Positions 6,747-38,294 of a DNA stretch of 64,000 nucleotides are shown here, one piece after another. The first letter of the stretch is position 1, and the number at the start of each line of letters is the position of its first letter. A model generated the notes under the pieces. That model saw only the letters and a program-made list of their open reading frames with translations. It was not told the origin of the DNA and made no database searches. This DNA is from Atractiella rhizophila (lineage: Eukaryota). The position numbers and the translations under genes are program-made. The stretch lies in assembly GCA_021432655.1 (NCBI GenBank), contig MU271255.1:1-64000 (forward strand), given 5' to 3'.

Positions 6747-8542
6747 ATGAGGAGGGTAAGGAGGAGGGTAGATCCTGGTGATGACAGCACCCATGCAAGA
6801 TTTCATCTCCACCTTCGGCTTTCTTCTCCTCTAACAGGGGTTATGGGTTCTAGTTTGCTGTCCCTTCTCGAAGAATGACGGAGGAGCAAACAGCTGGCCT
6901 TTGCCATGGCTCTCAAGAACCAAAATCGAGGGCACTTGTCCATGTCATCACCCCTATTGATGTCCCCGATTCGATTCGCCTCTCCATTCTCCCCTCTTTC
7001 CTATCTCGCCTACCCCTATCAATTCACATGCTCCAGATTTCGTTTGTCTTATTCCCATTTTTGAGCAGGTTGAACTTTGAAGAGATGTCATCAAAATTGT
7101 CTCATTTATCACTTGAACGGGTCAATAATGCGGTCAACAAGGATGGTGCAATTAATCTTCACATTATCATCAACAGCGAAAGTGTGTCAGTAACATTAGT
7201 GGAGGTTGAAGGGCATACGTTGACTGTCAAAAGAGATGTCAAATCGGCGGTCAACCCACTTGCTTCATATGGTTATTCATATACCTGCACATTTCCTTTC
7301 TTTCGCGAGAATGCCATATTTGCCCCCATTGCCTCATACTCCGAACCAGAAGGCTTCACCCCCATCAGTGACGACGAATCGCCAACCCTCCAATCCCTCC
7401 GGACAGCTAGCATCATCCAACTCTCTGTCCCACTTCCAGATGTTATTCCATGCAACATCTTACGCTTGCCTGTGGAGCTCCTCTCTCGTATATTCAGTTT
7501 TCTCGACGACACTTCTAAGCTCTCCGACGTATGCGAGCTCTGGAGAACCGTTTCAGCTCCTTATTGGGATGAACCTCGTTCTTTGGTGCGAAAGTATGAG
7601 TGGTTGAAACGCTATCCAGGTGCTGGACGATTGTGGAATCACCTGCCGCTTAAGGAAAGCATGGATGTTAGGATGGTGAAGGAGGTCATTGTAGGCTCGC
7701 CGAATGTCACGACAGTGGAGGTGGACGCATTTTGGAATGAAGAGGACGCAAAGATTGTGTTGGATGCAATCGAAGGCTTGAAACGGGCGGATGACGTCAG
7801 GTTTTGGAGGGGTTCGAGAAAGTGGAGGAAGGAGGAGATCGAGAACTTTTTGCAGAGGATGGGTGGCAGGATCAGATGGCTCGAAGTTCACGACGTGGAA
7901 GAGTCTCCCGCTTCCGCCTCAGCAGGCCTTCACTTATCCTCTCGCCTCGAAGTCCTATGGCTTCAACAGTACCCGCCTCTCCCATCACTCTCACTCCCAC
8001 ACACCCTCAAGTGCCTCGCACTCTCCAATATGTGTCCACTCCCTTCCTCCATCTCAGAGTCCCCTCTGCCGCCTCTTCTGGAATGGCTCTCGATCGAGCT
8101 CGCCCCCTTCTCCGCTGAAGGGAAGACCTCCATCCTGCCAACTCCGGTCCACTTATCGCACCTCAGGCACCTCACTCGCCTGATCCTCGACGGGGGCGAA
8201 GAAACGTCAAACCTCGTTTCCCGCGAGTTCTTCAGCCCCCTCAAAAACGCAACGCAGATAAGTGAGATAACACTCATGTACTGTGTGGTGGACGCGTCTG
8301 ACTGCTCAGATTTCATCCACTGGTTCTTTGGGGATTGGCTGGTGAGGGGGATTGAAAAGGGGGACCGAGTTGATGGAGCGGGGATAGGGAAACATCTTGA
8401 GGTTCGTTTATTCTTTGGAGAGTGGAGCGAGGTGGATATTGTGATTGCGAGGAGTACGATGGAAAAGTATCCAATGAGCAAGCTGTCAAATATGTGGGGC
8501 AAGACATCAGGTATTTGGGAGCCTGGGGAGGGCAAGGAGTAG
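6747..8542 (+). CDS. F-box/LRR-like protein, array copy F1 (intact)
   Basis: Exon1 6747-6794, GC-AG intron 6795-6853, exon2 6854-8542. F-box motif LRLPVELLSRIFSFL..LSDVCELWRTVS is followed by LxxLxL repeats. Confidence 0.85.
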
Positions 8543-9514
8543 TGTAGAAGGCACAATTCGACCCAGGCTACACCTCTGAAACTACTGGATCAGACTCCCG
8601 ACTCTCGCATCGCTCTCATCACCCCACGGCGGCAGGACATACCTGCGAACGCACAGAATTTGCCAGGGGGACTCAACCACTTGTTTTGCTAGCCAAGTCC
8701 AACGCTTAGATTGAGAGCCAGGACAATGCCACTTGCGCTGAGACATCAAGTCCGTTACTCTCATGTTCAAACAAGATTAGATTTGTTGAATAAATGTTCT
8801 TTTGACAGCAACCGTGAATAAAAATGACTTTGTATGATCATTGCGAAGCCGAGTCCCGGAATTGACAGACGGGAAGGTGGCAAGATTAGGAGGCGAGGAA
8901 CAAAGTGTGAAAGTTCATATCCACCTTGCATATTTGCACAACTATAATGCGAATGAAGTCCTCTGCACCTTGAATAGCAGAATACAAGTTGCAAGTATCT
9001 TGGTGCATTTGAGACAACTGTTGGACCGATTTACGGACGAAAATGAGAACGAGAGCCGTTTCACATACAATCCCCAAAGCTTCCGTTCGATCGTTTGCTT
9101 CTTCAATGTCTATTCTACAGCCTCTATCTTCGTCCACATCTACGTCTGAAGGAGAACGAGGACCTCGACTCGATGCGCTCTGGAGTCGCATGGCATTATT
9201 GCTGTTGCACCATCCAGGAGTGGCTCATCAATAACGAATGGAGCAGATTAAGGAGCTCGTTTGAATCGAACAATGACGTGGACTGGCTGTAAAGCAGTCT
9301 AGTTAGATATTGAACGAAAAGCCAAGATTTGAGGATGCACCCTTGAACCGTGCATGTCGACATCGCTGCGATGGTCAGGTTCCTCCTCTCTAAGTCGGTT
9401 CAATGATCGTCAGTTTTTATTGCTGACTTGAGATACCAAAATTTTATGACTTCTGCCTAATATGCAGACTAAAACGGACCGTACACAGACGAAATCCCGT
9501 CTAACGAGCCTCAC

Positions 9515-9900
9515 TCACTTCTTCTTCTTGGTGGTCTTATCAATAACCTCCAACATCAGACCTTGGCCAACAACACTCATACCAGCACCATAAACTCGAA
9601 GAGACGACGTACTAGGTGCGAGACTCTGCTTGAGCTACTCTACCCTCTCGGCATCAGCAAGCATGAGGGTGTAAAGGTATTTTGAGCATCGGATCGTGAA
9701 CTTGGTGACGGGTTGAGCGGAATCGAGTGCTTTGGATTTCTTAGTGGGAGACGTGACTGAAGGTTGTTTCCTTTGTGTCGGGATGTGTACGCTTTATCCG
9801 AGCGGCTGCATTGTGGCGTCAGCCTTTGTGTGTGTTGAGTGGGGGGAGGAAAGGAAGGTGGCCCTTGGCAGTAGGAGCATGTACTCGGATTCCCATACCT
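9515..9900 (-). pseudogene. RPL38: Ribosomal protein eL38 pseudogene (intron-containing), copy 1
   Basis: Reads [31 protein letters not shown], intron, then GLMLEVIDKTTKKKK*. This matches the eL38 signature KFKVRCSRYLYTL..KAEKLKQSLP. Nonsense TAG at 9635-9637. Confidence 0.85.
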
Positions 9901-11614
9901 ATAAAACGTCAAACAGGGGCTGCTTGAGGGCTTTAATTCACCTTCATCACCAATCTGCTGTCAAAACCGATAAGAGAGCAGAAGACTTACAGGGTAACCT
10001 GGAGCAGCACGCGCACAATCTTCAAAAGGTAGCCATACTGTTTACTCCTGATTACTTCTCCTGCATTAACCAGCTTGTCATCCGCATGATGACCACGAAG
10101 CTTGGAAGTCGATGATCGGTGGAGGAGGAATGCAGCGGCTAACTTTGCAGAGTGCGGAACAGCGATTGATGACGTCGTTCAAGTCGGTGTCGAAGGCAAC
10201 GATGCGCTACCCCTTGTTCGGCATCCAGCTCTTTCCCTGATTGTACCCGTTGTCCAGCTACTGCTAGTCGCAGCCCACCATCCACTGAACGCCATGACGC
10301 GCCACCTTGACTGGCCCAATTGCTGCCTGTTCCACGACAGCCATTCCTCTCCTTCCTCCAACCCAAAGCTCCTCACTGGCATCCCCTCCCTCCCGATCCC
10401 AAAGCCCCCATCCCGCACAAGCACTCTCCGACACCTCTCCAAGCCACAACCCCTCCACGCACAAGTTTCATCTCCACCTCCGCCTTCTCTCTGCCGCTGC
10501 CTTCGCTTTCGGTTTTACAGACCAGTACCTGACGCACCGTGGAGCTCCTAACGCGTGTTCGAAGCACACCTACTCGTGCCGCACAAAGTGAATACGCATC
10601 ATGACCATCTTCTCTCTCTTTCCTCCTCCCGTTGTGTCCGGACCGATAGAGCGGTTGAAGCAGTTCGATAGAGAGGTGGTTAGCAAATGCAAAAGGGAGG
10701 ACGAGGAGGACAGAGAGGGTGACCAGTTGCTCGGGGTGGGTTTGGTGATGGAGAAAGCGTAGGAAGCGGGCGCGGATGTTGCGTTTCACGGCGTATACAT
10801 GTCCTGAGGAGGAAGAAGCGAGGACGAAGCGGCGGGAGCGGTGGATGAGGGAGGGGAGGAAGACGTAAGTGACGGAGGAATGTAGTATAGTATCTCTGTG
10901 TTTAGAGTGGTTGACAGGGTAGCTGAAGGAGGAAAAAGGGAAGAATGAAACAGGTGCACTTTGGTGGTTCTCATTTGTGAGTTATTCACGCTCCAATATC
11001 TTTGGCGCACCGCTTCTCTCGCAAAACCCAAACTGACATTATCTCCTCCATTTAAGGCCTACCTCAGCTCCATCGAACAACTCCGAGCCTCTCCTGTTGT
11101 CATCCACGAGCGGTCATCTGTCGCTTTCATCATCATGTTCCTTGCGCCTCGAAAAATAACTCACGTCGTCTCTACAGCGTGGGAAAGGGAACGGAGAAGT
11201 ATCAATCCATGACATTCACGACTGTAACTGCAAGGACGGACGCCTTCGCTTCAATCAGGACAAGCATTGTTTGATTCCAACTTGTCGAGGTCCAACTTCC
11301 ATGGATGCCTGAGCGTCATTTTGATTCCAACTCGTTTAGCAGTAACGGCCTTCAGACGATCCCCACATCCTCAGCTTGAATGCTTTCATTCATTCACAGA
11401 GGGTTAATTCTGTTTTCCCAGCACGACGTCCTCCTCGACATCTGAGTTCTCCGCATCAAATAGAGTATAAAGTCGTACAACGCAGGTCCCCCCCAACAGC
11501 TTCTGCTTGATTCTCCGACGAATTATTCATAAAGGTGGTTTCACAGCACACATTTGGGGACCTCAGTTCAACTTTTTGTTTTATCAATCCTCATCGTGTT
11601 TCGATCACATCAAG

Positions 11615-13380
11615 ATGCGAACGGTGAGGATGAAGTTGGCACCGGCTGATGACGCGACGCAGGCATGATTTGATATCCAACTGTGGTTGTCTTATTCTCA
11701 TCTAACGCGAGTTACGGGTTCTAGTCTGATCACTCTTCTCCAGAGCAGCAAACGTCTGGCCTTTGCCACACCTCTCCGATACCAACCTCGACGGCATTAG
11801 TCCATGTTATCACCCCGCACGACTCCAGCAATTCCATCCACCTCTCCATTCTTCCCTCTTTCCTATCTAGCCTACCTCTTTCAATTCACACGCTCCGGAT
11901 TTCGTTTAATTTATCTCATCCATTGAAGGCAGATTGGGAACCTGCAGAGATGGCCTCAAAATTGTCTTGTTTATCACTTGAAGGTGTCGAAAATGCAATT
12001 GACAAGGATGGTGCACTCAATCTTCACACTATCATCAACACCGAAAGTGTTTCAGTAACCCTTTTGGATGTTGGAGCGCATGCGTCAGTTGTTGACAGGG
12101 ATGTCAACGCAGAGGTCGACTCGCTTGCTTCATATGGCTATCCATATACTCGCAAATTTCCCTTCTTTCGCGAGAATGCCATGATTTCCCCCATCGCCTC
12201 ATACTCCGAACATGAAAAACGCTTCCTCCCCATCAGTGACGACGAATCGTCAACCCTCCCATCCCTCCCTCCAGACAGCATCATCCAACTCTCTGTCCCA
12301 CCTCCAGATGTTATTTCATACTCCAACTCACGCTTGCCTGTGGAGCTTCTCTCTCTCGTATTTAGTTTCTGCGATGACGCTTCCACTGTCTTCAATGTAT
12401 CCAAGCTCTGGAGGGAAGTTTCAGCTCCTTATTGGCGTGAACCTGAGTCTATACTGGGAAAATGTATTCGGTGGAAACAGTATCCTGGTGCAGGACGTCT
12501 GTGGGACAGACTGTCGTTTAACCACTGGATCCAAGTTGGGTTGCTGAAAGAGTTCATCGTGGGCACGCCGAATGTTACTAAAGTGGTGATGGACACATTT
12601 TGGGATGAGGAGGAGGCGAAGATTGTGTTGGATGCAATCGAAGGCTTGAAACAGGTGAATGATGTCACGTTTGGAAAGGGTTCGAGAAAGTGGAGAAAGG
12701 AGGAAATCGAGAGCTTTGTGTGGAGGATGGGTGACAGGATCAGACGGCTCGATGTTTTCAACGTGGACTACTCTCCCGATTCAGCGTCAGCAGGGCTTCA
12801 CTTATCTTCTTGCCTCGAATACCTGCGCATTTTCCGGTACCCGCCTCTATCATCGCTCTCCCTCCCATGGACCCTCAAATCCCTCACACTCTACAGGATG
12901 TGTCCACTCCCATCCTCTATTTCAGACTACCCTCTCCCACCTCTTCTAGAAGGTTTGATGGTCGTGCTTGCCCCCTTCTATACTGATGCAAAGACCTCCA
13001 TCCTACCCACTCCGCTCGACTTATCACACCTCACACACCTCACTCAGCTGATGCTCGACGGGGGCGACGAAACGTCAAACCTCGTTTCCCGCGAGTTCTT
13101 CAGCACCCTCACAAATGCAACGGCGATACGCTATATGACGCTCTGGTACTGTGTGGTGGATTCATTCGACTTCCCAGACTTCATCCGCTGGTTCTTTGGG
13201 CATCGGCGGATGAGCGGACTTGAGAAGGTTCACGAAGTGAACCTGGTACTTGTTGTTCGGTTGTTCTTTGGAGAGTGGCACGAGGAGGACATCGCCTCTG
13301 CAAGGATGACCATGGGGGAGTACACAAGGAGCAAGAGCTCAGGTGTTTGGGAGGCTGGGGAGCTGGAGAAGCACCGGTAG
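11615..13380 (+). CDS. F-box/LRR-like protein, array copy F2 (intact)
   Basis: Exon1 11615-11662, GC-AG intron 11663-11724, exon2 11725-13380 open throughout. F-box SRLPVELLSLVFSF..VSKLWREVS. Confidence 0.85.
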
Positions 13381-13429
13381 TGATAGGAGGCATTGTTCCA
13401 TTCAAGCTCCAAATACGAGGTGGCTGGGT

Positions 13430-14490
13430 CTAGCTTTTCTGCGTGCTTCTACACAACATAGAATGAGTCCGCTAATCTCGTCATCCTTTCTGAAGACCTA
13501 CTGTCCTCCCCTTCGCAGAACTCGTTCACATTCTGTTCAGAGTTCGAAGACAAACCCTCCTCCGTCGACGTCACTCTCAACCCTCGACGACTCCATCACA
13601 TTCAATGCCTCCTCCACCCCATTCTTCCTTGCTCCCTCCTCCTGCCATGCAGCTAGACTAGCGGGATATAATACGATACACTGCTTTGCCTCGCCTATGT
13701 GATTCTGTTATCTTAGATGGAAGAGTGCTTTGAGAGAATTGCAGATTCTCTTTTGTAAAGGGGTAGCTGGACTAGGAGAGCTGAAAGAGCGGAGGATGTT
13801 GGACGTTCTTTTGGAGAGGATGAAGGAGAGAATCAGAGACAGAGCGGCGTAAGTCCAGTGCGCGTGCGCCGTTGCTACTCCGTGCATCTGTAGGCAGTTG
13901 CTGCAATCAAACGATCTGAATAGTAGAACGTTAATACCATCGCAAAGAAAGGGGAGGAACTAAGTCTTACCTCGATAGATGAACCTTTGTGACCACAGCA
14001 TTCTTTCCCGTTCCAGGATCCCACGAGAGCGTAATACTCTTCTTCCTCCTACTCAAAATCTCATATCTTACGATCTGTTCTAAGACCTCATAGCTTTCCC
14101 TCCGCAAGCGAGCCAATTCGAGAGCATAGTGGTTGTTGAGAGCAATGGAACTCGTCCTCTGTTGGCTTACTCTCCACCTCACTCCCACCTATTTGAGCTT
14201 TTCTCCACTGCCTCCTTACTCCCTTTAGCCGTAGCCACACATAGGCATCTTGGAGTGCGCTGTGTGCTCGCTCATTGCTTGAGCGTGAAAGGTGACAGTT
14301 CGGAGGAGCATGGCGACAGAAGAACCTTTCTAGCCGGCAGGAGGTGTGCAGCGCTGGAGTCAGGAGTAGAGTACCCGAAGGAGTCCGAAGGAGAAGATGG
14401 AAGCCGGAGGAAGGTCGAGGCGAGGCGGGATGGGAGACGGCTAACTCGGATGTGGCGGAGGATCAACTACGTCATTTCAACTCGCCATCC
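13430..14490 (-). pseudogene. Decayed passenger gene X, copy a (unknown function)
   Basis: Peptide fragments YALELARLRRES.., FSPSSSPK and RKNGVEE recur at 25430-26400 and 33130-34260, with stops and frameshifts and a shared intron. Confidence 0.55.
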
Positions 14491-14529
14491 ATGATCGAGA
14501 ACTTCCAAACGGTGGAATTTGAGTGAGCA

Positions 14530-15600
14530 CTTTTCAGCGGCACTCCTTCCTCTGCTTTCCTTGGTTCCAACTTTGTTCAACTAGGTCCACCATTCGCCCC
14601 CCCAATGCGCTTCGTCGACCCTCCTAACCGCAACGTGTTCCCCTCGAGGCATTCCCTTCGTCCCTCACAACCATGGCTCCTCTTCATCCCTCCCACCTCC
14701 GGCACGGGATCCCAAACCACTCCCCCCCGCGCAAGTACAAACCACTCTCCTACTCCCCACCGAGCACTCTCTCCATATTGCACTCAAATTTCATCTCCAC
14801 CATCCACCTTCTCCGTCACTTCCCCGTCGCCGTCTCCTTCACTTTCGCTTTCTTTGACTTACCACCACCCTCCATACCGCAGCGGCCGTGGGTCCCGTTC
14901 GAAGTATCGCTCAGGAGCAAATGCCGTATCCTCCCCATCGTTCCGCTGCGTCCTCCTTCGCAGTATTCAATATTTCATCCGAACAGATCGGCTGGAGGAG
15001 TCCGGCGGACAGCTCTATTCGGAAGATACCGCAGAGGGAAGATAAGGAGGGACGAGAAGGGAGATGGGTTCGTCGGAGTGAGTTCGTGACAAGAGGTAGA
15101 AGATCTGTTTCAAGCTACTTGCACATCCTGAGAAGGGGAAGGTGACGACCGGAGCGGGGGCAGTGGTGGAGAGGAGTGGAAAACATCCCACCACGTACCG
15201 TCTCTCTGCTCGTTCGCCAACCGTTCAACGGGGTTCTATGGATAACATTCCATGGACGACCTCCCCCACTCTACCATCCTGTCCGCCCAAATCCCGTCCG
15301 TCCCCACTTCCTTCTGCTTCGACAAACTAGCTAGGAATGCGTCCAATCTCCATCTTTCCACTTCGACATCATCTCTGCGGCTGCCCTCGCCTGCTCGCAG
15401 GAACCACGTGGGATATTCGATAAAGGGCACGCTTCTTCACTCTTTAATGCCTTTGTTAGGAGTGAGTGGTCATTGTCAAGATTCGGGGGTGAAGGAGGAG
15501 GGACTTGATAGGAACCAGGAGTAGACGTAGAGATGAAGAGCTGATGTCGAGGAATAAGAGGAGGAGAGAATACGGAAGGATTGATGAAGGGTCTTGAGGA
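14530..15600 (+). pseudogene. Decayed passenger gene Y, copy a (unknown function)
   Basis: Homologous to 26440-27480, 34300-35400 and partly 10290-10600 (PKPLSPAQV, EDLF..AY, HP..T.SLLF, GTTW motifs); broken frames. Confidence 0.5.
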
Positions 15601-17855
15601 GGGGAAGAGTCGAGATGATAAGAAACATGGGAGAGAGTCCATCCAGCATCGTGCTGAACGAGGGCTCCCAGCGAAGGTGACGTGAAGTCATAACATTGAG
15701 CGGAGGACTGTGATGGATAAGGAGATGGAAGCGGGTGGTTATGCTAATCGACCATGTGGTGGGTCTTTCTTACTTTCACGCTCTGTTGTCTTCACCACGC
15801 TGATTCTTTGCGATGCGATGGTGCAGCATGGCCGACTCTGCCGCGTATTCGAAAGGGAACGACTCGCACCTTCGTGTCAGCATTGCGGGGAGCCCAGAGA
15901 ATAATCATCTATGTGGCTAAGGCGAGTGCATCAAACGCCGAAACCAAAGTTTGTACCCCTTCCTTCTGAGGACAAGGGGAGCTCGATTGACGACAGTGGC
16001 TGGACTTAGACTCTCGGTAAACCGATCATCTGAAGGCGATTCGAACTGCTTCCCTTCAAGATTCGAGCATTACTCTTGTATCACGGATATCGACTCGCTA
16101 AACTGCTCCGTCCTCCAACAATCCTATCAAAGGGATGCACTTCCTGCCATCGTTGGTTTAGTGCCATGCAATCGCTTCATCATTTTCACTTTAGAGAAAC
16201 GTATATATTAATTCCATTCGACCGACCACATACTTCCTTCCTTGTTGTGAGGAAGACGATGACTTTGAAGGCACCTCGATCGAATGACATCCATCCTCCT
16301 CTCTTTCGACCGCCCTGTGAGACGCGGCAATAGTAATGCTTCAAAACCCTTTAGCGTCTTCTTGCTCACTGCCTTAACAGATGGAAGAGGGAAGAGGAAG
16401 GAGAATTTCCGTCTCGGTTCGAGGTGCAGAGGTGAATGAAGGAGGGTGAGGGGTGTAGGGAGAAGACAAAAGTATGAAGGATGCAGAGCTGTAGCGATAC
16501 GTAGCTGAGGGCGAAGCGAAGGAAGGGAAAGGGGAGAGTGAAGGAGGATCAATTCTCTGGATATCATTCGTACTCCGCATGCGCTCTGATATGTGCACAC
16601 TTCTCTCAAAACCGAACCCTGAACTAGTGCTCTCCCACTTCAAGACTTCACGCCAGAACGACTACAAGTCTCTCGACTCACTCATCTGTCCTTTTGTCCT
16701 CCTCGAGTAGACCGTCTATCCGCAAGGGAATGACGGCAACGAACAATTTATTCGAGTGGTCTTACAGCGCCGGAAGGGAAGGCAGGGGTATCAAACCATG
16801 ATTGATGGCTGTGGGTATGGCTGCCTGCCTTTCAAACAGAACAAGCATTATTTTGATTCTATGTGTATCAGCAACATGTTCGTCCGATCCCCACATACCC
16901 CGCTTGCGAGCGAGCGGGTCGGGGGCTATATTTTGGACCAAAAATTGAGCTGGCGGCTGTGAGAAGGCTGCTTCAGATGGAGAGTCAACAGTGAGATTGT
17001 GCGCACTTATGAATACTTACCTCTGCATACACTCCATCGCCACATAGTTCAACTCTCGCTTCAGTCGAAACCAACCTCTTCTGTACCTCTTGCAGCCTCA
17101 CGTCTACTATCCAACTTACTTTGACAAGGGAATGGTGGTTGTTCCTTCGATCTGATGCTCTTGAACCTCTCTTCCGATTTGTCTCTTGCTCCATATGCCA
17201 GCCATTAGCACACATGTGAGGACATCGAAGATCTTGGGAGCAGGTTCGCTATGAGGTCTGTTTAATCCATGATCATTTATCATGGACTAGATATTAGAAC
17301 ATAACTTCCCAAAAAAGCCATGACGAATCTGAATAGTACAAGAGCAGAAACTGCAGAAAAGCTTGTAGACAATAAAAAAAGGTTGAAGAATTAGATAAAC
17401 CGAAGTGCTAAAGTGAGCCGGAGAGGGAAGACAAACCTGCAATGATAACCCCCTCTGCGAGCTGTTGTAACACTCCAATTTTGCCAATGGGGAACGGTTA
17501 ATTCTTCGCCCTTCTGGTCAATGTCCGAATGAGCTATCCATTCATTATCAACAGGACCAGTTTCCCCCAGCGTGCAGGAGGTGGACTCAACAACATCTTG
17601 TTGGGAAGCGCAAAGCATTCCTCAGACATCTTGCTCCCACACCTCCTCCCGGACCCTCACCGCCGCCTTTGTCACCATGCACCCCCTTGAGATTTGAGCC
17701 CTCTCTGTGCCGTCCTTCAGCTGTCGTGTTCTCGAAAAATAGAGGCTTGTTTCCGGAGGATGAGAGATGAACGCTAGACGGGATGGAGACAGTTGAACCG
17801 AGACGGGAAGGAAACCGTTCAGCGAGCGCAAGAGGACGAAGCAGATCGCAATGTC

Positions 17856-18938
17856 ATCGGTATCATATCTCACTGTCTTAGCATTAACATCCATCCCCCA
17901 CCCATCCATCTTCCCTCTCTATCCTCCTCAGCTGTTCCAACTCCTTCCGCACTCTGAAAAATACCTTCCTCCTTTCTCCCCCTACTGAAACTCTTCCTCA
18001 ACGCCTCGTCATCCCCTTTCGCGTCGTACATCTCCACATAGAGGAGTGACACCCTCATTTATACCGCTGAGAGTTTGGCGGAGTACTTTGCGAGAGAGTA
18101 GTATTTGGAGGGTGGGAGAGAGTGGCGGTATTGTAGTCTTCGACGAAAGCGCGGAAGAGCTCTTTTTCTTTGGATTTTGGGAGTGTCTTGGGGTCGATGA
18201 GTTCTTCGGCTAGCCAGAGCCTGAGTTTTGCTTCCTTCTCGAATATATCTGTTCCACCTACAACGTCTGTCAATTCTCACCACCGATCATTGATGGGCCA
18301 GAAGAAGGTAGAAAGGAACGGAAGAAGACGAACCAGATTCAGAAATAACCCCATGGTCCCCACTCCACTCCCCCACCACTCCCTCCTTCTTCCTCCTCTT
18401 CTCCTTCCGAGCCTTCTTCTCCCTCTTCTTCTCCTTCCTCGCTGCATGCTCAGCAGATGTCTCGTCCCGACGTTTTCCTCCTTCTCTTTCTTTAGTCGAC
18501 GATGTGAGGCGGAAGAGGGGGAGTAAGAGCACGAGCAACTGTCTGCGCGTTCACGTTTGGTTCAATACGAGGATACATTGAACAAAGGTGAGGAAAGACA
18601 AACCTGGACATCGGGAGCGTTTCTTCTTCCTGTCTCTGTCTCTAGAACGGGAGCGGGACGCCTCTCTTCGCCTCTGCCCATCTCTGGAACGAGAACGTGA
18701 GCGTCTTCTTCCCTCGCGCTCCATGTGACGTTCACGCGACCCTAACACGCATGAACTACTGTTTTCAATCTGTATGGAATAACGTACGTTCCGTTCTGCT
18801 CTCTCTATCCCTCTCACGCTCTACGCTACGGCTGCCATCTCTTCCCTCACGGTCACGGTGATCCTTTTTCCGCTCTTCCCAATCTCTGTCCCTGTCTCTG
18901 CCATGGTAAGATGTCCCAGGACTGGGATCTCTTCCCAT
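17856..18938 (-). pseudogene. Duplicate of the RS/KE-rich gene (frameshifted)
   Basis: Collinear with 4916-6058 including introns (DIFEKEAKLRLWLAEE..FVEDYNTATL), with frameshifts near 18110 and 17950. Confidence 0.85.
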
Positions 18939-19574
18939 TTCGCGCAGGTTGAGACTCTTTTGTTTTGTCGTTTGTGGACTGAATTGCGGACACGACGATG
19001 TGTTTCGTTCGTTCTTCAAGCTTGACGGCAAAATGTCAATCAACGAGCAATTTAATTGCTCAGGGCCAACTTGTCATCTGAACATTCTTCCGAACACTCG
19101 CACGTCGATGGATCAACTTCCTCTTCACGTGGCTACACTAGTACTCTCTCCGTGGCGGAAGGAAAGCTGTTGCTGTCAATATCTCTCTTCCTCCTCAGAA
19201 CAAGTTGTGGAGTAGCTCGACTTGCTATGGTCGTGTGTGGGAAGCCAGTCTTGAACCACGAGATCGAGGTGCGGACGTGCCCATCCACCCACTGAACAAC
19301 TTGACCAATCTAGGTCAGTTCGCTTGCTCTGAATTCGTTTGTTCATTAATCAAACAAGGTCGTTTCTCCATGCCCAACACGAACCAGACGGTCGTCCTGC
19401 TGCAGTCCGATCATGGATAAAAAGGCAATGTCCTTCAATCCCCTACAAAACGATACATCGATCTTGCCTTTCACCCTGATTCTCCACAAACTATTCTTCA
19501 AGGCATCTCACAGCTCACAGTTTGGACCTCAGCTCATTCTCATCAAGCTTCGTCACATTTTCGATCCCATTAAG

Positions 19575-25063: not shown

Positions 25064-25429
25064 TTCAGGGTCCGGACGTCTGGAGCTACTGGATCAGACT
25101 CCGGACTCACATCGCTCCTAGCACCCCATGATTGATGGAGGTGGTCGTGAACATGAAAGAGTTCGCGAGGGGGGCTTGGGCACTCATTTCGCTAGCCAGG
25201 CAAATGCTTAGTTTACAAGTTGGGAGGATACCACTAAGGCAGCCCGACATTCAAATGATTGTTAACTAACTCATTGACAAAGTGTACAATAAAGGCCTTT
25301 TGCTGAGAGGAAGTCCTTTGGACTGTGAATAATACGATCTACAGGAGAAAGCAAAGAAGGGGCCTCTCATAAGTCCAGTCAAGTCCAAAGCTGGCCATTT
25401 AGCTCCACCTTCAGCGCATTGGAGATGAA

Positions 25430-26400
25430 CTCATTCACACTCAGCTCATCAGAACTTCGATTCAAACCCTCCTCCGGTGACTTCCTCAACATGTCCCTCC
25501 CAACCCCAACACCTTCAGCACATTCATCCCTCTTCCACCCCACTTTTTCCTCCGCCCGCCTCTATCCACGTCGCTAAGGTCGAATGGTTGAGGGGCAGGA
25601 TACAATACAATACACCAATCCGCCACCCCTTTTGAGCTTCTGTTTCTTTTCGACGGAACAGGTGCTTTAGAAGAATTCTAGGTCCGCTTCTGCAAGCCTG
25701 AATGGAACGGTTGTTGATAAAGCTGCTGGACTAGGAGACGCAAATGAGCGGGGGACGCTGGATGCCTTTGGAGAGGATGAAGGGGAGAATCGGAGAGGAG
25801 AGATGGTCCACAGCGGTGGCTGCTCTACTTCATCTGCATCTGAAGGCAATTGTCAATCTAATCTTCTGAATGGTAGAACATAAAATACCATCGTAAAGAA
25901 GAAAGGAGGCAGGCTTACTTCGATTGATGACTCTCCGAGCCAGCCACACCACCACAGCAGTCTTTCGGATTCCTATGACAGCAGATTATTCATTGCACTC
26001 CTACACAAAATCCTAACCACCATCCCTTCTAAGGGCCACATCCAGCTTTCCCTTCGCCGCAAGTGAGGCAATTTGACTGCATTCTTATTAACAACATCAA
26101 ACCCATCCTCCGCCGCCTCCTTACCCCCTCTAGCCTCTAGCCACACGTGGGGATCATGCAGTGCGCTGTGTTGTCGCTGGCTCGCTTGAGAGAAAGGCGA
26201 GGCGTGTGGAGGAGAATGGCGACTCAAGACCATTTGGTGCGGCGCTGGAATCAGGCGTACAATGCGGGGAAGGAGCTCGAAGGAGCGAAATAGGGATGGA
26301 AGCCGGAGGAAGATCGAGGAGGAGGGGGTGAAATGGAGCGGCTAACTCGAATGCGGCAAAGAGAATCGATTACGTCACTCAACGGGAAGTCAAGGTCGAG
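25430..26400 (-). pseudogene. Decayed passenger gene X, copy b
   Basis: LRRRESWMWPLEGMVVRILCRSAMNNLLS, homologous to 13967-14188 and 33719-33961. Confidence 0.55.
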
Positions 26401-26439
26401 GTCAATAACGTGGGAGTGCCAAACGATGGTATTCGGGTA

Positions 26440-27480
26440 TGGTCTGTTCTTTTCAACGGCACTCCGTTTCATCTTTCATGCCACTTTATCCGGCTAGGCT
26501 TACCATCCGCTCCTCACACTGGCAAAGCACCATTCGAACCGCAATCCGTACACAGCGAATGGATTCCCCTCCTCTCCTTCCACAGCCCACACCTCTTCAT
26601 CCCTTGCAAACCACTCTCGCCTGCACAAGTACGACCACTCTTCGCCTCCTCACCAAGCACCACCGCCCACAACACTTACATCTCCACCTCGGCCCTCTCT
26701 GCCTCTGCTGTCGCCTTCACGTAGCACACCTAATGTACCACGCAGGTTCCGAACCCACGTTCGAAATGGACCCGCTCGGGCTACCCAAAAGTGAAGACCG
26801 CATCAACTCTCCCCCCACTTCCCGCCACTTCCTCCTTTCGCTTTATCCAGATATAGCGGCTGGAGCAGCCCCGCGCATAGGTCGGTTCGGAGGACGCATC
26901 AGAGGGAGGACGGAGACCGAAATGGGTTGGTCGAAGGGGTTTCGCAGCCTAGAGGTATGGGAGGTGGTGGGAGATGATGATTTGTTTTACAGTGATGCCT
27001 TTTCTGAAGAGGAGAAGGGTGAGCGCAGTAGGGTGGTAGGGAGCACTGGAGAGGGGTCAAAAACGCACCCACTACAGACCGCATGTCTGCTCTTCCTCCT
27101 GCAGGGCATCACGTAACAATGCAACAGGTTCTCTGGCAAGAATTTGGCGTGGCATTGACGACCTCCATCCTCTCAACTGTCCTCTACATTGCAAATCCTG
27201 TCCCTCCGCTCTGCTCCCCCGCTCGTTCCGCTTCGCCTGCGCCATTCAGCTCCTATTTTCCTCGCTGGCTCACCGGCACCACTTGGGATAGTCGGAAGGA
27301 CACACTTCCCCATTCTCTAATATCTTCGTTAGGGGTGATGACGGGAAGGACTACGGAATGGGAGAGAAGGAGGAGAATGGATGGAAAGCTGGAGGAGAGA
27401 TGGAGATGGAGAACTGATGTCTTGGAAAATAGAAGGAAGATGGGCATCGCGCTGGAAAGAACTCGGGATGTGGTGTGACA
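26440..27480 (+). pseudogene. Decayed passenger gene Y, copy b
   Basis: KPLSPAQVR, DDLFYSDAF, HPLQTACLLF and LTGTTWD fragments in shifting frames. Confidence 0.5.
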
Positions 27481-29190: not shown

Positions 29191-30300
29191 GGGAACAGGC
29201 TAAAACAGTTCGTTCTCCTTCTTCCTTCGCAAGAATCTCGAGTAATTGCTGATTGTTCCCAGCTTCCACGATAATAATATACTCATTCAGCTTTCAGATG
29301 ACCACATTGTTTCCTGATTTGATGGGAAGATGAAGATGCCTTTGGAGCCACCTCGATCTAGCGACATCCTCTCCTTTGACGAACAATCTTTCTTGAGACA
29401 GAAAGGACAAAATGCGTTAGAATCCTTTGTAGTCTTATGCTCACTCGCTGAAGAAAGGGAAAAGGGAAGGGAAGGAGAATTATGGATGAGAACGTCAGTC
29501 TGGGCATGTAAGGCACTCGAATTTGGAGCTGAAAGAAAGAGGATGAGGGATGGGGAGGAGGGGCACGGAAGCTATGGAGGATGCAAAGCGGTTAGGGATC
29601 TGTGACTGATGTGTGGCATAATGGGAGAAAGTGGACCGTGAAGGAGAAGGAATTCCCTAGATGACATTCGTGAGTTATTCACTCTCTAATATCTTGCATG
29701 CACACTTCTCTCAAACCGAAACCCGAACTGACTTGCCTCCTCCATTCAAGGCTCACTCCTACCGCTAAACGATTGTGAGCCTTTCAAATTGGTCGCCTCT
29801 GCTTTTGTCTTCCACAAGCACCCCATCTATCCACGAGGGAACGTTCATCATCATGTTCCTTGCCCCCTCGAACAATTTCGGAACTATCTCACCTTGTCTC
29901 TGCCGCGTGGGAAAGGGAAGGAGGAGTATCAACCATGATATTCACGACTGCAACTGCATTCCCTTCAGTGAGGGCAAGCATTGTTTGATTCCAGTTTGTC
30001 GAGGTGCAACTTCTGTTCCCCCACTTCCTCCACTTGAATGGCTTCCTTCATTCACAGAGGGCCAATTCTGTACGGCTAATACGAACCAGCTGTCGCCGTC
30101 CGAGTTTTCCGAATCATATCAGGGCACACTACTAGGCTACGTTCGTACCCCAACAACGAAAGGATCAGTGGGTCGTGCCATTCTCCTTGATCTTCCCACA
30201 AGCTGTTCACCTAGGTAGTCTCACAGCTCACAGTTTGGGATCTCAGTTCATGTCGTCACGATTCCTCGCGAATGGCTCTCGCATTTCCGGTCTTGTCAGG

Positions 30301-32128
30301 ATGGGAAGGAAGATGACGCAGCTGATGAGGAGGATGCTGGGAATGGCGAGGAGGAGGATGACGCCTGCGAATGATGCGGTTCAGGTATGATTCCATCTTC
30401 ACCCTTGGCGTTCTTTCTCATCTGACGTTCGTCATGGATGGAAACTAGTCTGCTATCTTTCCTCAAAAGATGATGGAGCAGCAAACATCTAGCTCACATG
30501 AGGACTCTCAAGAACCAGACTCGAGGGGACTTGTCCATGTCATTACCCCAAGCGATGAGCTCAATTCGATTCACCTCTCCATTCTTCCCTCTTTCCTATC
30601 TCACCTACCTGTGTCAATCCACACCCTCCAGATTTCATTCACCTTGTCACAATCATTGGGGAGGCGGAACCTTGCAGAGATGTCACAAAAACTGTCTCAT
30701 TTATCATTTGGATGGGTCAATAATGCGGTCGACAAGGATGGCGCAATCAATCTTCACCTTACCATCGACAGCGATATCTCAGTAACCTTTTTGGATGCTG
30801 AAGAGCATGCGTCGACTATCGAAAGAGATGTCAAATCAGAGGTCAACTCGCTTACTTCGTCTGGCGATCCATATATTCGCACATTTCCTTTCTTTCGCGA
30901 GAATGCCATATTCGCCGCCATTGCCTCATACTCTGAACATGAAGAATGCTTCCTCCCCATGTGTGAGGATGAGTCGTCATCCCTCCCATCCCTCAGTACA
31001 GCTAGCATCATCCAACTCTCTGTCCCACCTCCAGGTGTTATTCCATGCTCCATCTCGCGTTTACCTGTGGAGCTCCTCTCTCTCATATTCAGTTTCATCG
31101 ACGACACTTCCATTCTTGGAGTTGTCCCTGACGCGTGCAAGCTCTGGAGGGAAGTTTCAGCTCCTTATTGGGGCGAACCTGGCACAGTGACAGAGAAGTA
31201 TGAGCGGTTGAAACTCTATCCTGGTGCAGGACGAATGTGGGACAGACTGACGTTTGACGAAAGTATGGATGTTGGGATGGTGAAGCAGGTCATTGCTGGC
31301 TCGCCGAACGTCACGGAAGTTTGGATGGATGCATTTTGGAATGAAGAGGAGGCGAATACTGTGTTAAATGCAATCGCAGGCTTGAAACGTGTGGATGTCA
31401 TCAGGTTTGGAGATTGGGGTTTGAGAAAGTGGAGGAAGGAGGAGATTGAGAAATTTATACGGAGGACGGGTGACAGGATCAGACGGCTCGAAGTTAACGA
31501 CGTGGAGGACTCTCTTGTTTCAGCCTCAGAAGGCCTTCACTTATCTTCTCGCCTCAGATCCTTAGACCTCTACCAGTACCCGCCTCTCCCATTGATCTCC
31601 CTCCCACGCACACTGAAGCGCCTCAAACTCACCAATATGTGTCCGCTCCCTTCCTCCATCTCGGAGTGCCCTCTACCACCGCTTCTAGAATGGCTCAACA
31701 TCGAGCTCGCTCCGTTCTCCCCTAGCGAAAAGACCTCCATCCTACCCACTCCGCTCCACTTATCACACCTCACGCACCTTACTCGCCTGATCCTCGATGG
31801 TGGTGAAGAAACCTCAAACCTCATTTCCCCTGAGTTCTTCAGCACCCTCAAAAATGCAACGGCGATACATGATATAACACTCTGGTACTGTGTGGTGGAC
31901 TCGTTCGACTTCCCAGACTTCATCCGCTGGTTCTTTTGGAATTGGCAGGTGAGCGGAGCTGAGAAGGCAGATCCGCCTGATAGAGAGGTCATAGGGTGGC
32001 ATCTTCAGGTTCGTTTATTCTTTGGAGACTGGAGCAAGGAGGAGATTGTGATTGCGCGGAGTACGATGGAAGAGTACACAAGGAGCGAGGAGTCAGGCAT
32101 TTGGGAGCCTGGGGAGGGGGAGGAATAG
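30301..32128 (+). CDS. F-box/LRR-like protein, array copy F6 (intact)
   Basis: Exon1 30301-30384, GT-AG intron 30385-30448, exon2 30449-32128. F-box ISRLPVELLSLIFSFI..ACKLWREVS. Confidence 0.87.
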
Positions 32129-33129: not shown

Positions 33130-34260
33130 CAATGTGGACCAGCTTATCTGCGTGCTTCGGCTCAACATAGAATGAGCGTCCTAATCTCGTCATCTTTTCC
33201 GGTGACAAGGAAAAAACTTACCCCTCGGCGCGTTAGAGGTGAACTTATTCAATCTGCATTCTAGTCAGAATTCGATTTCAAACTTCTCTGGCGACTTCCT
33301 CAACATGTCCCTCCCACCCCCAACACTTTCATCACATTCATCACCTCCTCCGCCCATTCCTCCCTCCTCCTGTCACGCTGCTACGGCTGAATGATCGAGG
33401 CACACGTAACGCAATACACTGATCTGCTGCGCCGTTGTGCCTCTGTTGTCTCAGATGGCAGAGGTGCTTTGGGAATGTTTTAGATCTCCTTCTAAAAGTT
33501 GATCATTCTCAGTGGCTGAACTGGGAAAGAGGGTGGATGCTGGATGCCATTTGGAGAGGATGAAGGGGAGAATCGGAGAGAACGGATGGTCCGCAAGTGT
33601 TGGCGTAGGCCGAGTGTGCACTTCGGTCTCTAGTCTACTTCAGCTGTAGGCAATTGTCAATCTAATCTTCTGAATGGTAGAACATAAAATACCATCGTAG
33701 AGAAGAAAGGAGGCAGGCTTACCTTGATTGGTGTCTCTGTGCCAGACACTCCACCACAGTAGGTTCCCATGACAGCAGATTATTCATTGCACTCCTACAC
33801 AAAATCCTAACCACCCCTTCTAAGTGCCACATCCAGCTTTCCCTCCGCCGCAAGCGAGCCAATTCGAGAGCATAGTACTTATCGACAACATGAAACTCAT
33901 CCGCCGCCGTCTTACTCTCCACCTCGCTCCACCTCTTCGAGCTTTCGGCACGTTCCGCCACCTCCTAACTCCCTTTGGCCTCTAGCCACATGTGGACGTC
34001 ATGAACTAAGCCATATTATCACTGCCTCGCTTGAGAAAAGAAGAGTGAAGCGCATGTGATGACAAAAGAACCCCCTTCTTCAGTCTGGATCGAAGTTGGA
34101 GTCAGGTGTACGGGGAGGAGATTAAAGAAGTAGAGATGGGAAGTCAGAGGAAGATCCAGGCGGGAGGATGGGGAGATGAATGGAGCGGCTAACTTGAACG
34201 CGGGCGAAGAGAATCGATGACGTCACTCAACGGGAAGTCAAGGTCGGGTACATGGGAGCG
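33130..34260 (-). pseudogene. Decayed passenger gene X, copy c
   Basis: DEFHVVDKYYALELARLRRRESWMWHLEGVVRILCRSAMNNLLSWEP. Confidence 0.55.
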
Positions 34261-34299
34261 CCAGTAAAATGATAGAATTCGGGATATATTACGGGCTGT

Positions 34300-35400
34300 T
34301 CTTTCAACGGCACTTCCTTCTCCTCTTTCTTTCACTGCGTGACAACTTTGTCCACCATCCGCTCCCACAACACGCCACTCGACCGTCAAAACCGCAACTG
34401 GTCCCTTCGCCGCTGTTCTCCTCGTCTCCTTACTACCCAGACTCTTCTTCATCCACTCCCTCCTCGCGATCCCAAACCACTCTCACCCACGCAAGTACGA
34501 ATCGCTCTTCGACTCCTCATCCGACCATCCACCTCTCCACTCAAATTAGATCTCCTTCTCCGTCTTGACTGTCGCTTTCACCTTCGCTCTGACGTATCTT
34601 CATGCAATGTACCGCACAGGCTCCAAATGCGCATTCGAAGCGGATCTACTCGCGCAGCACAAGGGCGAATGCGATGCCTTTCTTCCTCTTCTCGCCTTCC
34701 TCCTCCTTTGACGTATCCCGATAAAATAGCTGGAGTCCCCGGACAGATCGGTTCGGAGAATGACAGGAGGATAAGAGGGGCAGGGGAGGAAGATCATTTG
34801 GTAGACGCGGGGGTCGTTGGTGCGAAGGGGCTGCTGCGGGGAGAGGATTTGTTTGAGCTGCTTGCATATCTGAGGAGGCGAGGGGGCGGCGGAGAGGGTT
34901 GTACACCACATCCGCCAACTACCACGTCTCTGCTCTTCGGCCAGCAGGACATCATATAACCATTCATTGGGTTCTCTACAGGAAATAGCATGAAGGATCT
35001 TCCTCCCCTCAAGCATCCGATACATCCAATCCTGTCCCTCCCCTCTGCTCCGCCTCCTTCCACTTTGAAAACGGGGCGAGGAACGTGTCGATCGACCCAT
35101 CTTTTGCCTTTGCCATTTGCCTCTGCCACTTCTCTACTCGGCCCGTTGGAGCCACTTGGAGACATATAGGGAAGGGGCTTTCTTCCTCATTCTCTAATGC
35201 CATTGTTAGGAGTGTAGACGAGCAAGAATCTGGAAAGGAGGAGGAGGAGAAAAGGATGGGAAGAGGTCTGGGAGTGGAGATAGAGAGCTGGCGGAGAGGA
35301 AGAGGAAATGAAGGAGGAGGATGAGGAAGGGTTGAAGTAGGTCTGGAGGAGGGAATGGAGCCGAGAAGGGAGGTGGCGTGGAGAGCGCCGGTGGAGCGAC
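34300..35400 (+). pseudogene. Decayed passenger gene Y, copy c
   Basis: DPKPLSPTQVR, YPDKIAGVPGQIG, EDLFELLAY, HPPTTTSLLFGQQ and VGATW. Confidence 0.5.
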
Positions 35401-36500
35401 GTTGCTGCTTCTTTCGGAACGAGGACTACTGGTGAAGAAGATGAGATAAGGGTTTTGGTTACCGAATGAGGAATAGAGAGAGCGAACCAGGAAGGTAGCG
35501 GTAAGCGACCATGTTGTCCGTCCTCCCTACGTTCACACACTCTCCACAACGCTGATTCCCTGCGATGTGATGGAGCAGGACAGAGGACGCGTTGCTATTG
35601 AAGCTTTCCTTATCCAAAGCAGAACGACTCGCATAAGCAGTGCTGACTACCGACAGAATGTTCACATCTATGGTAAAGTGAGATCATTAAAAGACGACTG
35701 GTTGTATACTTCCTTGCCTAAGACAAGGGGAGATTGACGATGTGGCTAGACTTAGACTGCGGACAACTGGCGATTCGAAAGACGAAGCACCTTGCTGACC
35801 TTCACATTCCAAGCGTCGCTTGTATATCATTGTATATCGATGCAAAAACAGTCCAATGCGCCAACGATCCTATCAGAACTCAGGACTTCCCTCCCACACT
35901 AGGTTTAGTGCCATGGCTTCATCATGGTTGCTGTGGGGCATTGCACCTGCCTCATTTCGAACAGCCACTTCCCGGCGTGATGCGCAGAAGGAACTTCGAT
36001 GTCACCGTGATCGAACCTTCCTCCTCTACTTCAACCAACGACCACCCTTTGAGGCGGAAACAGACCTGCCTGAGCATCCTTACGAGTTTTTTTGATCACT
36101 TGCTTAAGACAGCGAAGACGGAAGTGTGGGAATGAGAACGATGAGAATATCCGTCTTAGCATATATGGCACTAGAGTTCGGATGTGAATGAAGGAGGATG
36201 AGAGATGGAGTGAGGGCACGGAAGTGATGGGTGGTACCATTTTGATTCCCACTTGTTAACATTGTCTGATCCCCACATGCTCTGCTTGAGTCCCATCGTT
36301 CATTCACAGAGGGTTAATTCTACACGACCTCCTCCTTCAGTCCGCGTTCTCCATATCAAATAAAGGCATACAACGCACATCCGTCCCCAACAACAGTGTG
36401 AGGAAATGTTTTTCTAGGTCGTCTCACAGCTCACAGTTTCGGACTGGAGAACCCATTGCAACTTTTCGTCAATCTTGTTCAAAGTTTCGATCCTGTCAGG

Positions 36501-38294
36501 ATGGGAATGAAAATGAGATGGGCAAGGATGAGGGTGGCGCCTGCCGATGATGCGACCCACGCATGTTTCATCTCCACCTTTGATATTCTTTTTTTTCCTA
36601 ACATGGGTCATGGGTTCCAGTCAGCTACCTCTTCTCAAATGATGATGGAACGGCAAACATCTAGCGCACGCCAGGGCTCTCAGGCACCAGACTCAATGGC
36701 ACTTGTCCATGCCATCACCCCAGGCTACAGGTCCTCGATCCACGTGTCCATTCTTCCCTCTTTCCTATCTCGCCTACCTCTGTCAATTCACACGCTCCGG
36801 ATTTCGTATATCTTACCTCGTCGAATGGACGAGTACTGGGAGCCTGGACAGGTGTCCTCAAAATTGTCTTATTTGTCACTTGAACGGGTTAAACACGCCG
36901 TCAACAAGGACGGTGCAATCAGTCTTCACATCAGCATCGACAGCGAAAGTGTTTCAGTAACCGTTTTGGATGTTGGAGGGCATGCGTCGGCTGTCAACAG
37001 GGATGTCAAATCAGAGGTCGACCCGTTTGCTGCCTCTGGCGACTCATATACTCACACACTTCTTTTCCTTCGCGAGAATGGCATATTCGCCCCATTGCTT
37101 CGTACTCCGAACATGTGGAACGCTTCCTCCCCATCAGTGAAGACAAATCATTACCCCTCCCATCTCTCGCGGCCGCTAGCATCATCCAAATCTCTGTCCC
37201 ACCTCCAGCTGCGATTCCATGCTCCATCTCGCGTTTGCCTGTAGAGCTCCTCTCTGATATTCAGTTTCTCTTGCAAGATTTTCATTGTTGCTAATGTATG
37301 CGAGCTCTGGAGGGAAGTTTCTGCTCCTTATTGGGACAAACCTCATTCTGTGGTGGAAAAGTATGAGTGGTTGAAACGGTATCCTAGTGCCGGACGACTG
37401 TGGAACAGACTGAGGATTAACAAAAGCATAGATGTTGGGATGGTGAAAGAGGTTGTCATAGGCTCCCCGAATGTCACGAGGGTGTGGGTGGATATGTTTT
37501 GGAATGAAGAGGAGGCGAACGTTGTGTTGAATGCAATCGAAGGCAAACAGCTGGATAATGTCACCTTTGGAACTGGTTCGAGAAAGTGGAGGAAGGAGGA
37601 GATCGAGAACTTTGTGCGGAGGATGGGTGACAGGATCAGACAGCTCGAAGTTTATGATGTGGAGGACTCGCCTACTTCAGCCTCTGCAGGTCTTCACTTA
37701 TCATCTCGCCTCGAATACCTAAAACTGGGAAAGTACCCGCGTCTGCCATCGCTGTCCCTCCCACACACCCTTGAGCACCTCGAACTCTGGAATATGTGTC
37801 CCCTCCCTTCGTCCATCTCCAACTACCCTCTGCCGCCTCGTCTGAAAGAGCTCACAGTCATGCTTGCCCCCTTCTCCGCCGACGGAAAGACCTCCATCCT
37901 TCCTGCTCCATTGGACCTATCACACCTCACATGCCTCAGCGAGCTGATTCTCGACGGGGGCGAAGAAACGACAAACCTCGTTTCTCGCCATTTCTTCAGC
38001 ACCCTCAAAAATGCAACGGTGATTGAGTCGATAACACTCCAATACTGTGTGGTTTACTCGTTCGACTTCTCAGACTTCATCCGCTGGTTCTTTGACCGTT
38101 GTCGGATGAGCGGAGTGGAGCTGGTGTATCGGCCTAATAGAAAGTGGGCAGAGGCACATCTTGAGCTTCGTTTGTTCTTTGGAGACTGGAGCGAGGAGGA
38201 GATTGTGATTGCACGGAGGACGATGGGAGATTGCACAACGGGCAAAAGGAAGCTGCATTCAGGTGTTTGGAAGCCTGGGGAGGGGGACAAGTAG
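36501..38294 (+). pseudogene. F-box/LRR copy F7 (-1 at ~37090 and -2 at ~37255)
   Basis: Exon1 36501-36560, GC-AG intron 36561-36620. The family peptide lies in ORFs 36456-37244 and 37350-38294 (same frame), with an out-of-frame stretch between that ends in TAG at 37242-37244. Confidence 0.85.

Follow-up and report, generated by a model that had tools for sequence, protein, structure and literature searches.

The window analysed here comprises the first 64,000 nucleotides of contig MU271255.1 of Atractiella rhizophila, a root endophyte belonging to the Pucciniomycotina, within the basidiomycetes. Between positions 6747 and 38294, it carries seven paralogous genes, named F1 to F7, whose predicted products combine an F-box-like motif with a solenoid of leucine-rich repeats (LRRs). 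This F-box/LRR array follows birth-and-death dynamics, with a scaffold and an F-box under purifying selection and with diversifying selection on the variable (x) positions of the LxxLxL strands of the solenoid. We consider that this tandem array, found in Atractiella only among the sequences searched, has probably had its LRR face diversified by fast-changing targets.

A birth-and-death array of seven F-box/LRR paralogues

The presence of seven paralogues, proposed in an initial annotation of this DNA, was borne out by stop-to-stop frames, by a BLASTN comparison of the F1 unit with the window and by a MAFFT alignment (Table 1); all are on the + strand. The copies are 76-86% identical at the DNA level. 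F1, F2 and F6 are open, F4 and F7 are frameshifted, and F3 and F5 are partial. The conserved scaffolds listed in that annotation (WRKEEIE, GLHLSS, PPLPSLSLP, MCPLPSSIS and DGGEETSNL) and its variable LxxLxL strings were all present in the translations, and its start coordinate, 6747, is indeed that of the homologous first exon of F1.

Table 1. Coordinates, in the window, of the array copies, of the parts of F1 and of the flanking features.
Feature	Position	Strand	Remarks
F1, open copy	6747-8542	+	Exon 1 6747-6794 (MRRVRRRV...); putative GC-AG intron 6795-6853; exon 2 6854-8542
F1 N-terminal beta-rich domain	6929-7426	+	Residues 19-184; family-specific
F1 F-box-like motif	7457-7612	+	Residues 195-246
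F1 LRR solenoid	7622-8464	+	Residues 250-530; about 10 strand/helix repeats
F1 span with selected strand x positions	7718-8278	+	Codons 282, 362, 364, 404, 406, 435, 463, 464, 468 (posterior at least 0.95); 382 (0.91)
F2, open copy	11615-13380	+	Exon 1 11615-11662; putative GC-AG intron 11663-11724; exon 2 11725-13380
F3, partial copy	19575-20656	+	Cut after WRKEEI exactly at the tandem-duplication junction
F4, full-length pseudogene	22262-23902	+	1-base deletion near 22592; 1-base insertion near 23372
F5, 3' fragment of about 130 codons	24654-25063	+	Partial tandem duplicate of the F4 3' end and flank
F6, open copy	30250-32128	+	Exon 1 30250-30384; GT-AG intron 30385-30448; exon 2 30449-32128
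F7, full-length pseudogene	36501-38294	+	1-base deletion near 37090; 2-base deletion near 37250
Co-duplicated upstream flank	4926-6746		Common to the F1, F3 and F4 units, 77-86% identical
Major facilitator superfamily (MFS) transporter	388-1131	-	Flank of the array
Syntaxin	3738-4664	+	Flank of the array
RPL38	39025-39297	-	Flank of the array

F1, F2 and F6 had been described as intact. This holds for the open frames of F1 and F6, but F2 has lost the ATG of its second exon, the next in-frame methionine being encoded at 11950. F2 is therefore whole, with a protein of 567 amino acids, only if its 62-base GC-donor intron joins it to the 16-codon first exon. The F1 protein has 578 amino acids when the intron is spliced, and 555 when counted from the ATG at 6875. 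The donor of this 5' intron is GC in five of the six copies that keep the region (F1, F2, F3, F4 and F7) and GT in F6 only, and the exon-1 ATG of F4 is changed to ACG. The 5' ends of the five former copies may correspond either to GC-AG introns or to a start at the downstream ATG, and both types of gene model (MRRVRRRV...Q/S... and MTEEQ...) occur among the database paralogues. F6, the sole GT-donor copy, is also the sole window copy with an annotated gene model: it corresponds to P0007, a protein of 604 amino acids deposited as hypothetical protein BT69DRAFT_1331540 [Atractiella rhizophila], with 100% identity over 552 residues, which assigns the window to this basidiomycete. F1 and F2 were not found in the protein database, where the best identities were 70% and 68%, respectively.

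The array grows and decays through unequal crossing-over, in which whole or partial units are copied along with their flanks; of the seven copies, four are dead. Unit boundaries fall inside genes. The segment 18173-20656 is homologous to 20655-23222, so that the next tandem unit begins where F3 ends, and the 3' end of F4 with its flank (23508-24443) matches the F5 segment (24651-25591) at 86%. No Pfam domain was found in the open reading frames (ORFs) of the co-duplicated upstream flank. A diverged copy, 73% identical, of part of the RPL38 region (38971-39341) lies behind F1 at 9485-9870, so that the units of F1 and F7 must at one time have had a common downstream flank. Two further possibilities were considered and rejected. 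Carriage by a transposon was set aside, as the ORFs between the copies hold no transposon-type domain. A co-duplicated second gene was discarded because the repeated intergenic segments (13432-14798, 25408-26781 and 33141-34555) lack three-base codon periodicity. More generally, the ORFs of at least 80 amino acids between the copies gave no Pfam match (142 ORFs, array and near flanks).

Contigs from three runs were compared with positions 6000-25999 at 90% likeness. The intergenic contigs were identical (X1 and X2) or nearly so (X3). The gene parts gather paralogue contigs at 90-95%, so that differences, joints and depth cannot be interpreted there in terms of alleles or copy number. A joint in X3 (18178 to 20661) would delete the F3 unit, but its shorter side, of 28 letters, is too short for trust. 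Near 20587 and 24458, X2 contigs at least 90% like the family sequence continue into TTAGGG-type telomere repeats, which suggests that some paralogue located elsewhere may abut a chromosome end; no telomere repeat was found in the window itself.

Protein architecture and distribution of the family

The proteins share a common plan, made of a short basic first exon, a beta-rich, family-specific domain of about 190 residues, an F-box-like motif and an LRR solenoid of the ribonuclease inhibitor (RNI)/FBXL type. Residue numbers are those of F1, counted from the ATG at 6875. The AlphaFold2 (AF2) model of F1 has a mean predicted local distance difference test (pLDDT) score of 73, and places in order the beta-rich N-terminal domain (19-184), three F-box helices (200-246) and ten strand/helix repeats (256-530).

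The solenoid fold that had been proposed was recovered in this model, with a pLDDT of about 90 over residues 250-480 and ten strands, 20-43 residues apart, alternating with helices. Structural comparison of F1 with VIA gave Z scores of 17.8 for Rna1p/RanGAP, 17.7 for FBXL2 (6o60_C), 17.4-17.6 for FBXL17 (6w66_B and 8uah_B) and 17.1 for the LRR of NLRC4, ribonuclease inhibitor being also among the top structural matches. Alignments to the top LRR structures covered about 270 residues, with a root-mean-square deviation of 3.3-4.3, and all the VIA matches listed were LRR-type solenoid proteins. The Foldseek matches listed were all LRR proteins as well, including COI1, FBXL17, TIR1 and D3, at E-values of only about 1e-3. 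Nine LxxLxL motifs, with their fourth position at residues 257, 281, 307, 336, 361, 381, 405, 436 and 465, all lie within strands assigned by DSSP.

The F-box claimed at the outset was found with Pfam PF12937, which scores 26.0 bits in F1 for a cut-off of 24.3. This was the sole Pfam family given, and it was detected at E<=0.01 in 27 of 38 aligned family members. Comparison of the 38-sequence profile with the PDB at E<=1 yielded weak matches, all 16 of which were F-box domains (Dia2, Skp2, FBH1, Fbw7, FBXL5, FBXL2 and FBXO42). L198, P199, E201 and W223 do not vary among the 38 sequences, and conservation is at least 90% at L203, F207 and V219; these correspond to the positions with which F-boxes contact Skp1. 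The corresponding helices of the F1 model span residues 200-211, 213-227 and 237-246. NB-ARC, NACHT and F-box-associated (FBA) domains gave no Pfam match in F1, F2, F6 or the 38 members, and no RNase family was detected among the 154 window ORFs scanned.

The N-terminal domain gave no Pfam match and no usable ESM Atlas match. When modelled alone with AF2, it reached a pLDDT of 59.6, and its comparison with 48,161 chains using VIA returned a best Z score of 3.4 (fungal galectins), which is not meaningful. It thus has no recognisable fold.

In the databases searched, the family occurs in one species only. F1 has at least 50 homologues, and all 50 of those listed are hypothetical proteins of A. 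rhizophila, with 40-72% identity. They are spread over about 30 contigs, four of them with four or five members each, a distribution suggestive of further arrays. With F6 as the query, exhaustive HMMER searching retrieved only 66 representatives at E<=0.001 among 1.84 billion. Distant relatives (26-31% identity) match only residues 175-540 approximately, that is, the F-box and LRR part; one of them, P0081, 30% identical, is also from A. rhizophila. Among the distant relatives scanned (P0081-P0107), 6 of 11 exceed the PF12937 cut-off, with 24.4-31.5 bits. In a FastTree phylogeny of 43 full-length members, F4 groups with P0005, F1 with P0010 and F2 with P0013. The window copies thus sit among paralogues of other contigs, indicating that the arrays are old and related by block duplication.

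Two database proteins depart from the common plan. P0061 (1169 amino acids) joins tetratricopeptide repeats (TPR_12/TPR_10) to the LRR part of the F-box/LRR family, TPR repeats being of a kind common in fungal proteins resembling NOD-like receptors (NLRs). P0091 (692 amino acids) is an F-box/LRR relative with two added C-terminal SH3 domains. Both may be real fusions or merged gene models.

Diversifying selection and its location on the solenoid

Codon models were fitted with a GY94-F3x4 likelihood in a program of our own, using a codon alignment of the seven copies projected on the F1 frame. Between full-length copies, the pairwise Nei-Gojobori ratio of nonsynonymous to synonymous substitution rates (dN/dS, or omega in the models) was 0.53-0.62, with a dS of 0.27-0.43. 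The log likelihood (lnL) was -6824.75 under M0 (omega 0.73), -6742.38 under M1a, -6699.66 under M2a (6.4% of sites at omega 6.3), -6744.53 under M7, -6742.42 under M8a and -6699.90 under M8. The check for positive selection suggested in the initial annotation, M7 versus M8, thus gave twice the log-likelihood difference (2dlnL) at 89.3, the corresponding values being 85.4 for M1a versus M2a and 85.0 for M8a versus M8. In six null data sets simulated under the fitted M1a, 2dlnL was at most 3.25. About 6% of the codons are under diversifying selection, with an omega of about 5-6.

The test remained significant under all the variations applied. The 2dlnL was 29.4 with three-class gamma site rates (p = 4e-7) and 39.8 when double and triple nucleotide changes were allowed (p = 2e-9). 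It was 90.5 with the five full-length copies and 15.6 with the three open copies. With each region on its own tree, it was 24.7 for the LRR region and 32.1 for the N-terminal half. The three segment trees were all star-like and all joined F2 with F7; the first two agreed on the remainder.

Purifying selection was also evident. Indeed, 35-43% of the codons have an omega of about 0.1, indicative of strong constraint, and the regional dN/dS of the F-box is 0.46. The neutral probability of a stop-free frame is 2e-3 to 5e-6 per open copy, for a lineage divergence of 0.10-0.20. The open copies are held open by selection.

LRR proteins bind their ligands with the face formed by the x positions of the LxxLxL strands. 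A class of 45 sites was defined beforehand, namely the x positions of xxLxLxx in the nine repeats that have their motif within a DSSP strand. Thirteen sites reached a posterior of at least 0.95 (30, 176, 282, 362, 364, 404, 406, 435, 463, 464, 468, 503 and 506). Nine were among these 45 sites and four among the 510 others (Fisher p = 3.8e-8), so that selection is focused on the strand x positions, as had been proposed. Most of the codons under diversifying selection are at strand x positions of repeats 2 and 5-9. By contrast, dN/dS was 0.33-0.35 for the rest of the LRR and 0.34 at the core L positions. The same pattern was seen in 35 database paralogues that were outside this selection test, in which the mean column entropy was 2.20 bits at x positions but 1.02 over the remaining LRR region and 0.78 at the core L positions (Mann-Whitney p = 2e-10). 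In these paralogues, no column of the protein varies more than site 464, and site 362 ranks third. A second variable patch was found in the N-terminal domain (sites 28, 30, 58-69, 171 and 176).

Candidate function, alternatives and surroundings of the array

The observation made in the initial annotation, that of an F-box/LRR array with hypervariable strand positions, is confirmed, and its interpretation as a non-self recognition system is partly supported. A diversifying repertoire of Skp1-Cul1-F-box (SCF) adaptors is well supported by the results above. From a mechanistic point of view, and by analogy with known F-box/LRR adaptors, the F-box would dock on Skp1-Cul1, while the concave LRR face, perhaps together with the variable N-terminal loops, would capture a protein for ubiquitination, so that each paralogue would have its own specificity. 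The pressure to change may come from quickly changing targets, whether viral or transposon proteins or those of selfish elements and other microbes. The idea that the targets are foreign or selfish proteins is speculative, and a role in non-self recognition is suggested by analogy with plants and nematodes. It is tentatively conceivable that this species-specific, birth-and-death family constitutes a fungal ubiquitin-ligase innate repertoire, in which a hypervariable LRR face, helped by a variable N-terminal domain of new fold, reads foreign or selfish proteins (from mycoviruses or transposons, or effectors of bacteria or competitors) and sends them to degradation. If true, such a repertoire would follow an immune logic distinct from that of fungal NLRs, converging on the one that nematodes and plants have been proposed to use.

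Several points weigh against an LRR face diversified by fast-changing targets. The codon analysis includes seven sequences, four of which are pseudogenes, and relies on our own implementation and on naive empirical Bayes posteriors; in addition, F4 joins F6 instead of F1 in the third segment tree, a weakly supported placement (46%). The variable ligand face described initially stands for a subset of x sites, at which omega clearly exceeds 1, but not for the whole face: dN/dS for the entire a-priori class is 0.84 over five copies, although it reaches 1.17 when only the open copies are considered. Alignment artefacts are possible at sites 499-506, which belong to a low-confidence, gapped loop and should be discounted. 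The concave face itself is a prediction from DSSP strands and the LRR motif. As regards the domains, PF12937 is marginal in F6 and F2, both of which fall under the cut-off (22.8 and 15.4 bits, respectively), the F-box part of the AF2 model has a pLDDT of just 51-79, and Pfam LRR models match none of F1, F2 and F6 (E<=1) nor any of the 38 members (E<=0.01). Finally, neither a target nor a partner gene could be seen in the array, and F6 alone has an annotated gene model.

The products could also be ordinary SCF adaptors that act on regulatory proteins of the fungus itself, their fast change reflecting sub- or neofunctionalisation after duplication, with no foreign or selfish conflict. F-box, BTB and RING families are described as expanded, fast-evolving and tied to development in Agaricomycetes (PMC10282164). 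The location of the array between housekeeping genes (syntaxin and RPL38) and the age of the duplications, with a pairwise dS of 0.23-0.48, also agree with this explanation. However, an omega of 5-6 at the same strand positions in many paralogues and four dead copies out of seven are unlike what stable substrates predict. The lack of any detectable relative outside one species also weighs against it. We regard regulation of endogenous proteins as rather unlikely. The FBXL-type proteins (Skp2, FBXL2, FBXL17, yeast Dia2 and Grr1-like, and plant TIR1/COI1/D3) share with the Atractiella family an F-box followed directly by an RNI-like LRR solenoid, and Dia2, Skp2, FBXL5 and FBXL2 are among the weak sequence matches of its motif. 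They are conserved, mostly single-copy regulators, whereas the Atractiella family is species-confined, has at least 50 paralogues and differs by its extra N-terminal domain of 190 residues, its selected strand positions and the absence of a Pfam LRR match.

Another explanation involves antidote or incompatibility genes, that is, genes of a toxin-antidote, drive or allorecognition system whose rapidly evolving F-box product degrades a linked toxin or an essential protein of the partner, Caenorhabditis KSS/KSL and neib-1 being examples. According to PMC12680543, KSL F-box/solenoid proteins are clustered, species-specific and fast-evolving, some have become toxin antidotes, and an F-box gene causes hybrid incompatibility. 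The Atractiella family resembles these in architecture and evolutionary mode. In the present array, though, no conserved second gene was co-duplicated with the units, the inter-copy ORFs lack Pfam matches and the repeated intergenic segments lack coding periodicity, which makes this explanation clearly improbable. The nematode expansions (FTH/FBA2 and Caenorhabditis KSL/KSS) nevertheless offer the nearest described parallel, and resemble the Atractiella family as tandem clusters of largely species-specific genes. In nematodes, purifying selection acts on the F-box and positive selection on the part that recognises the substrate, and these genes have been proposed to serve an immune-like function (Thomas 2006, quoted in PMC8120010; PMC12680543). 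The two differ in kingdom and in recognition domains, although KSL proteins are also solenoids, and some substrates and Skp1 binding have been established experimentally in nematodes, whereas the Atractiella family is known from sequence. The S-locus F-box proteins (SLF/SFB) are likewise clustered F-box paralogues acting as a collaborative recognition repertoire; they differ by their FBA domains and their linkage to an S-RNase, neither of which was found in the Atractiella array.

It may further be asked whether the F-box-like motif still binds Skp1, or whether these LRR proteins act by binding alone, as scaffolds or inhibitors, with no ubiquitination. Rna1p/RanGAP and ribonuclease inhibitor are indeed among the top structural matches, and Pfam F-box scores are near or under the cut-off in the window copies. 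Against this stand the invariance of the LP, E and W of the motif in 38 sequences, the purifying selection on the region, the distant relatives that pass the Pfam cut-off (6 of 11) and the PDB sequence matches, all of which are F-box domains, so that action by binding alone appears very unlikely. Functionless decay, with variability due to relaxed constraint only, is scarcely credible: four of seven copies are broken, the M0 omega is 0.73 and F1 and F2 have no database gene model, but three frames of about 555 codons remain open at a dS of 0.3-0.4, against the low neutral probabilities given above, over a third of the codons are strongly constrained, and a neutral class cannot explain the data (M8a versus M8).

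Diversification of the LRR face by fast-changing targets can also be set beside the receptors of plants and fungi. In plant NLRs and receptor LRRs, diversifying selection acts on solvent-exposed strand positions, and the genes form birth-and-death tandem arrays. The Atractiella family shares both the selected exposed xxLxLxx positions and this array dynamics, but has no nucleotide-binding domain, and its output module would be the F-box rather than an oligomerising ATPase. Fungal NLR-like proteins, or signal transduction ATPases with numerous domains (STAND), resemble it in that they too have variable repeat domains and have been proposed to act as non-self receptors in fungi (PMC10197012). 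According to the same source, fungal NLRs mostly carry WD40, ANK or TPR repeats, not LRRs, and diversify partly by shuffling near-identical internal repeats. The internal repeats of the Atractiella proteins, by contrast, are dissimilar, and variation lies between paralogues. A term search of the available text of this review of fungal immunity (PMC10197012) did not return the word "ubiquitin". We found no fungal study of ligand-face diversification in F-box proteins in the full-text literature, whose coverage leaves out most subscription journals.

Basidiomycete F-box expansions have so far been noted only as counts of fast-evolving genes. Here, change can be placed on a predicted ligand face and separated from mere relaxation. 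With this family, fungi have a counterpart to the F-box expansions of nematodes and plants, and the recurrent theme of ubiquitin-ligase adaptors serving as conflict genes would extend to a third kingdom. It offers a candidate receptor family for fungal immunity outside the NLRs, with three open genes and about 10 specificity positions.

The surroundings of the array call for three further remarks. The syntaxin ORF has no Atractiella match in the database, the best matches being from Agaricomycetes (33-42% identity). As this ORF, F1 and F2 are missing from the database although F6 is present, the deposited annotation of the contig seems incomplete. Located 6 kb beyond the array, the region 44488-47761 contains an ORF of 607 amino acids with no Pfam match, followed by an ORF of 407 amino acids with a weak phage-integrase match (22.1 bits, cut-off 27.1), and may be a tyrosine-recombinase mobile element (DIRS- or Crypton-like). 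On the - strand, the ORF at 61850-62464 has a weak zf-RING_2 match (25.6 bits, just under the cut-off of 27.3) and may be another ubiquitin-ligase gene, unrelated to the array.

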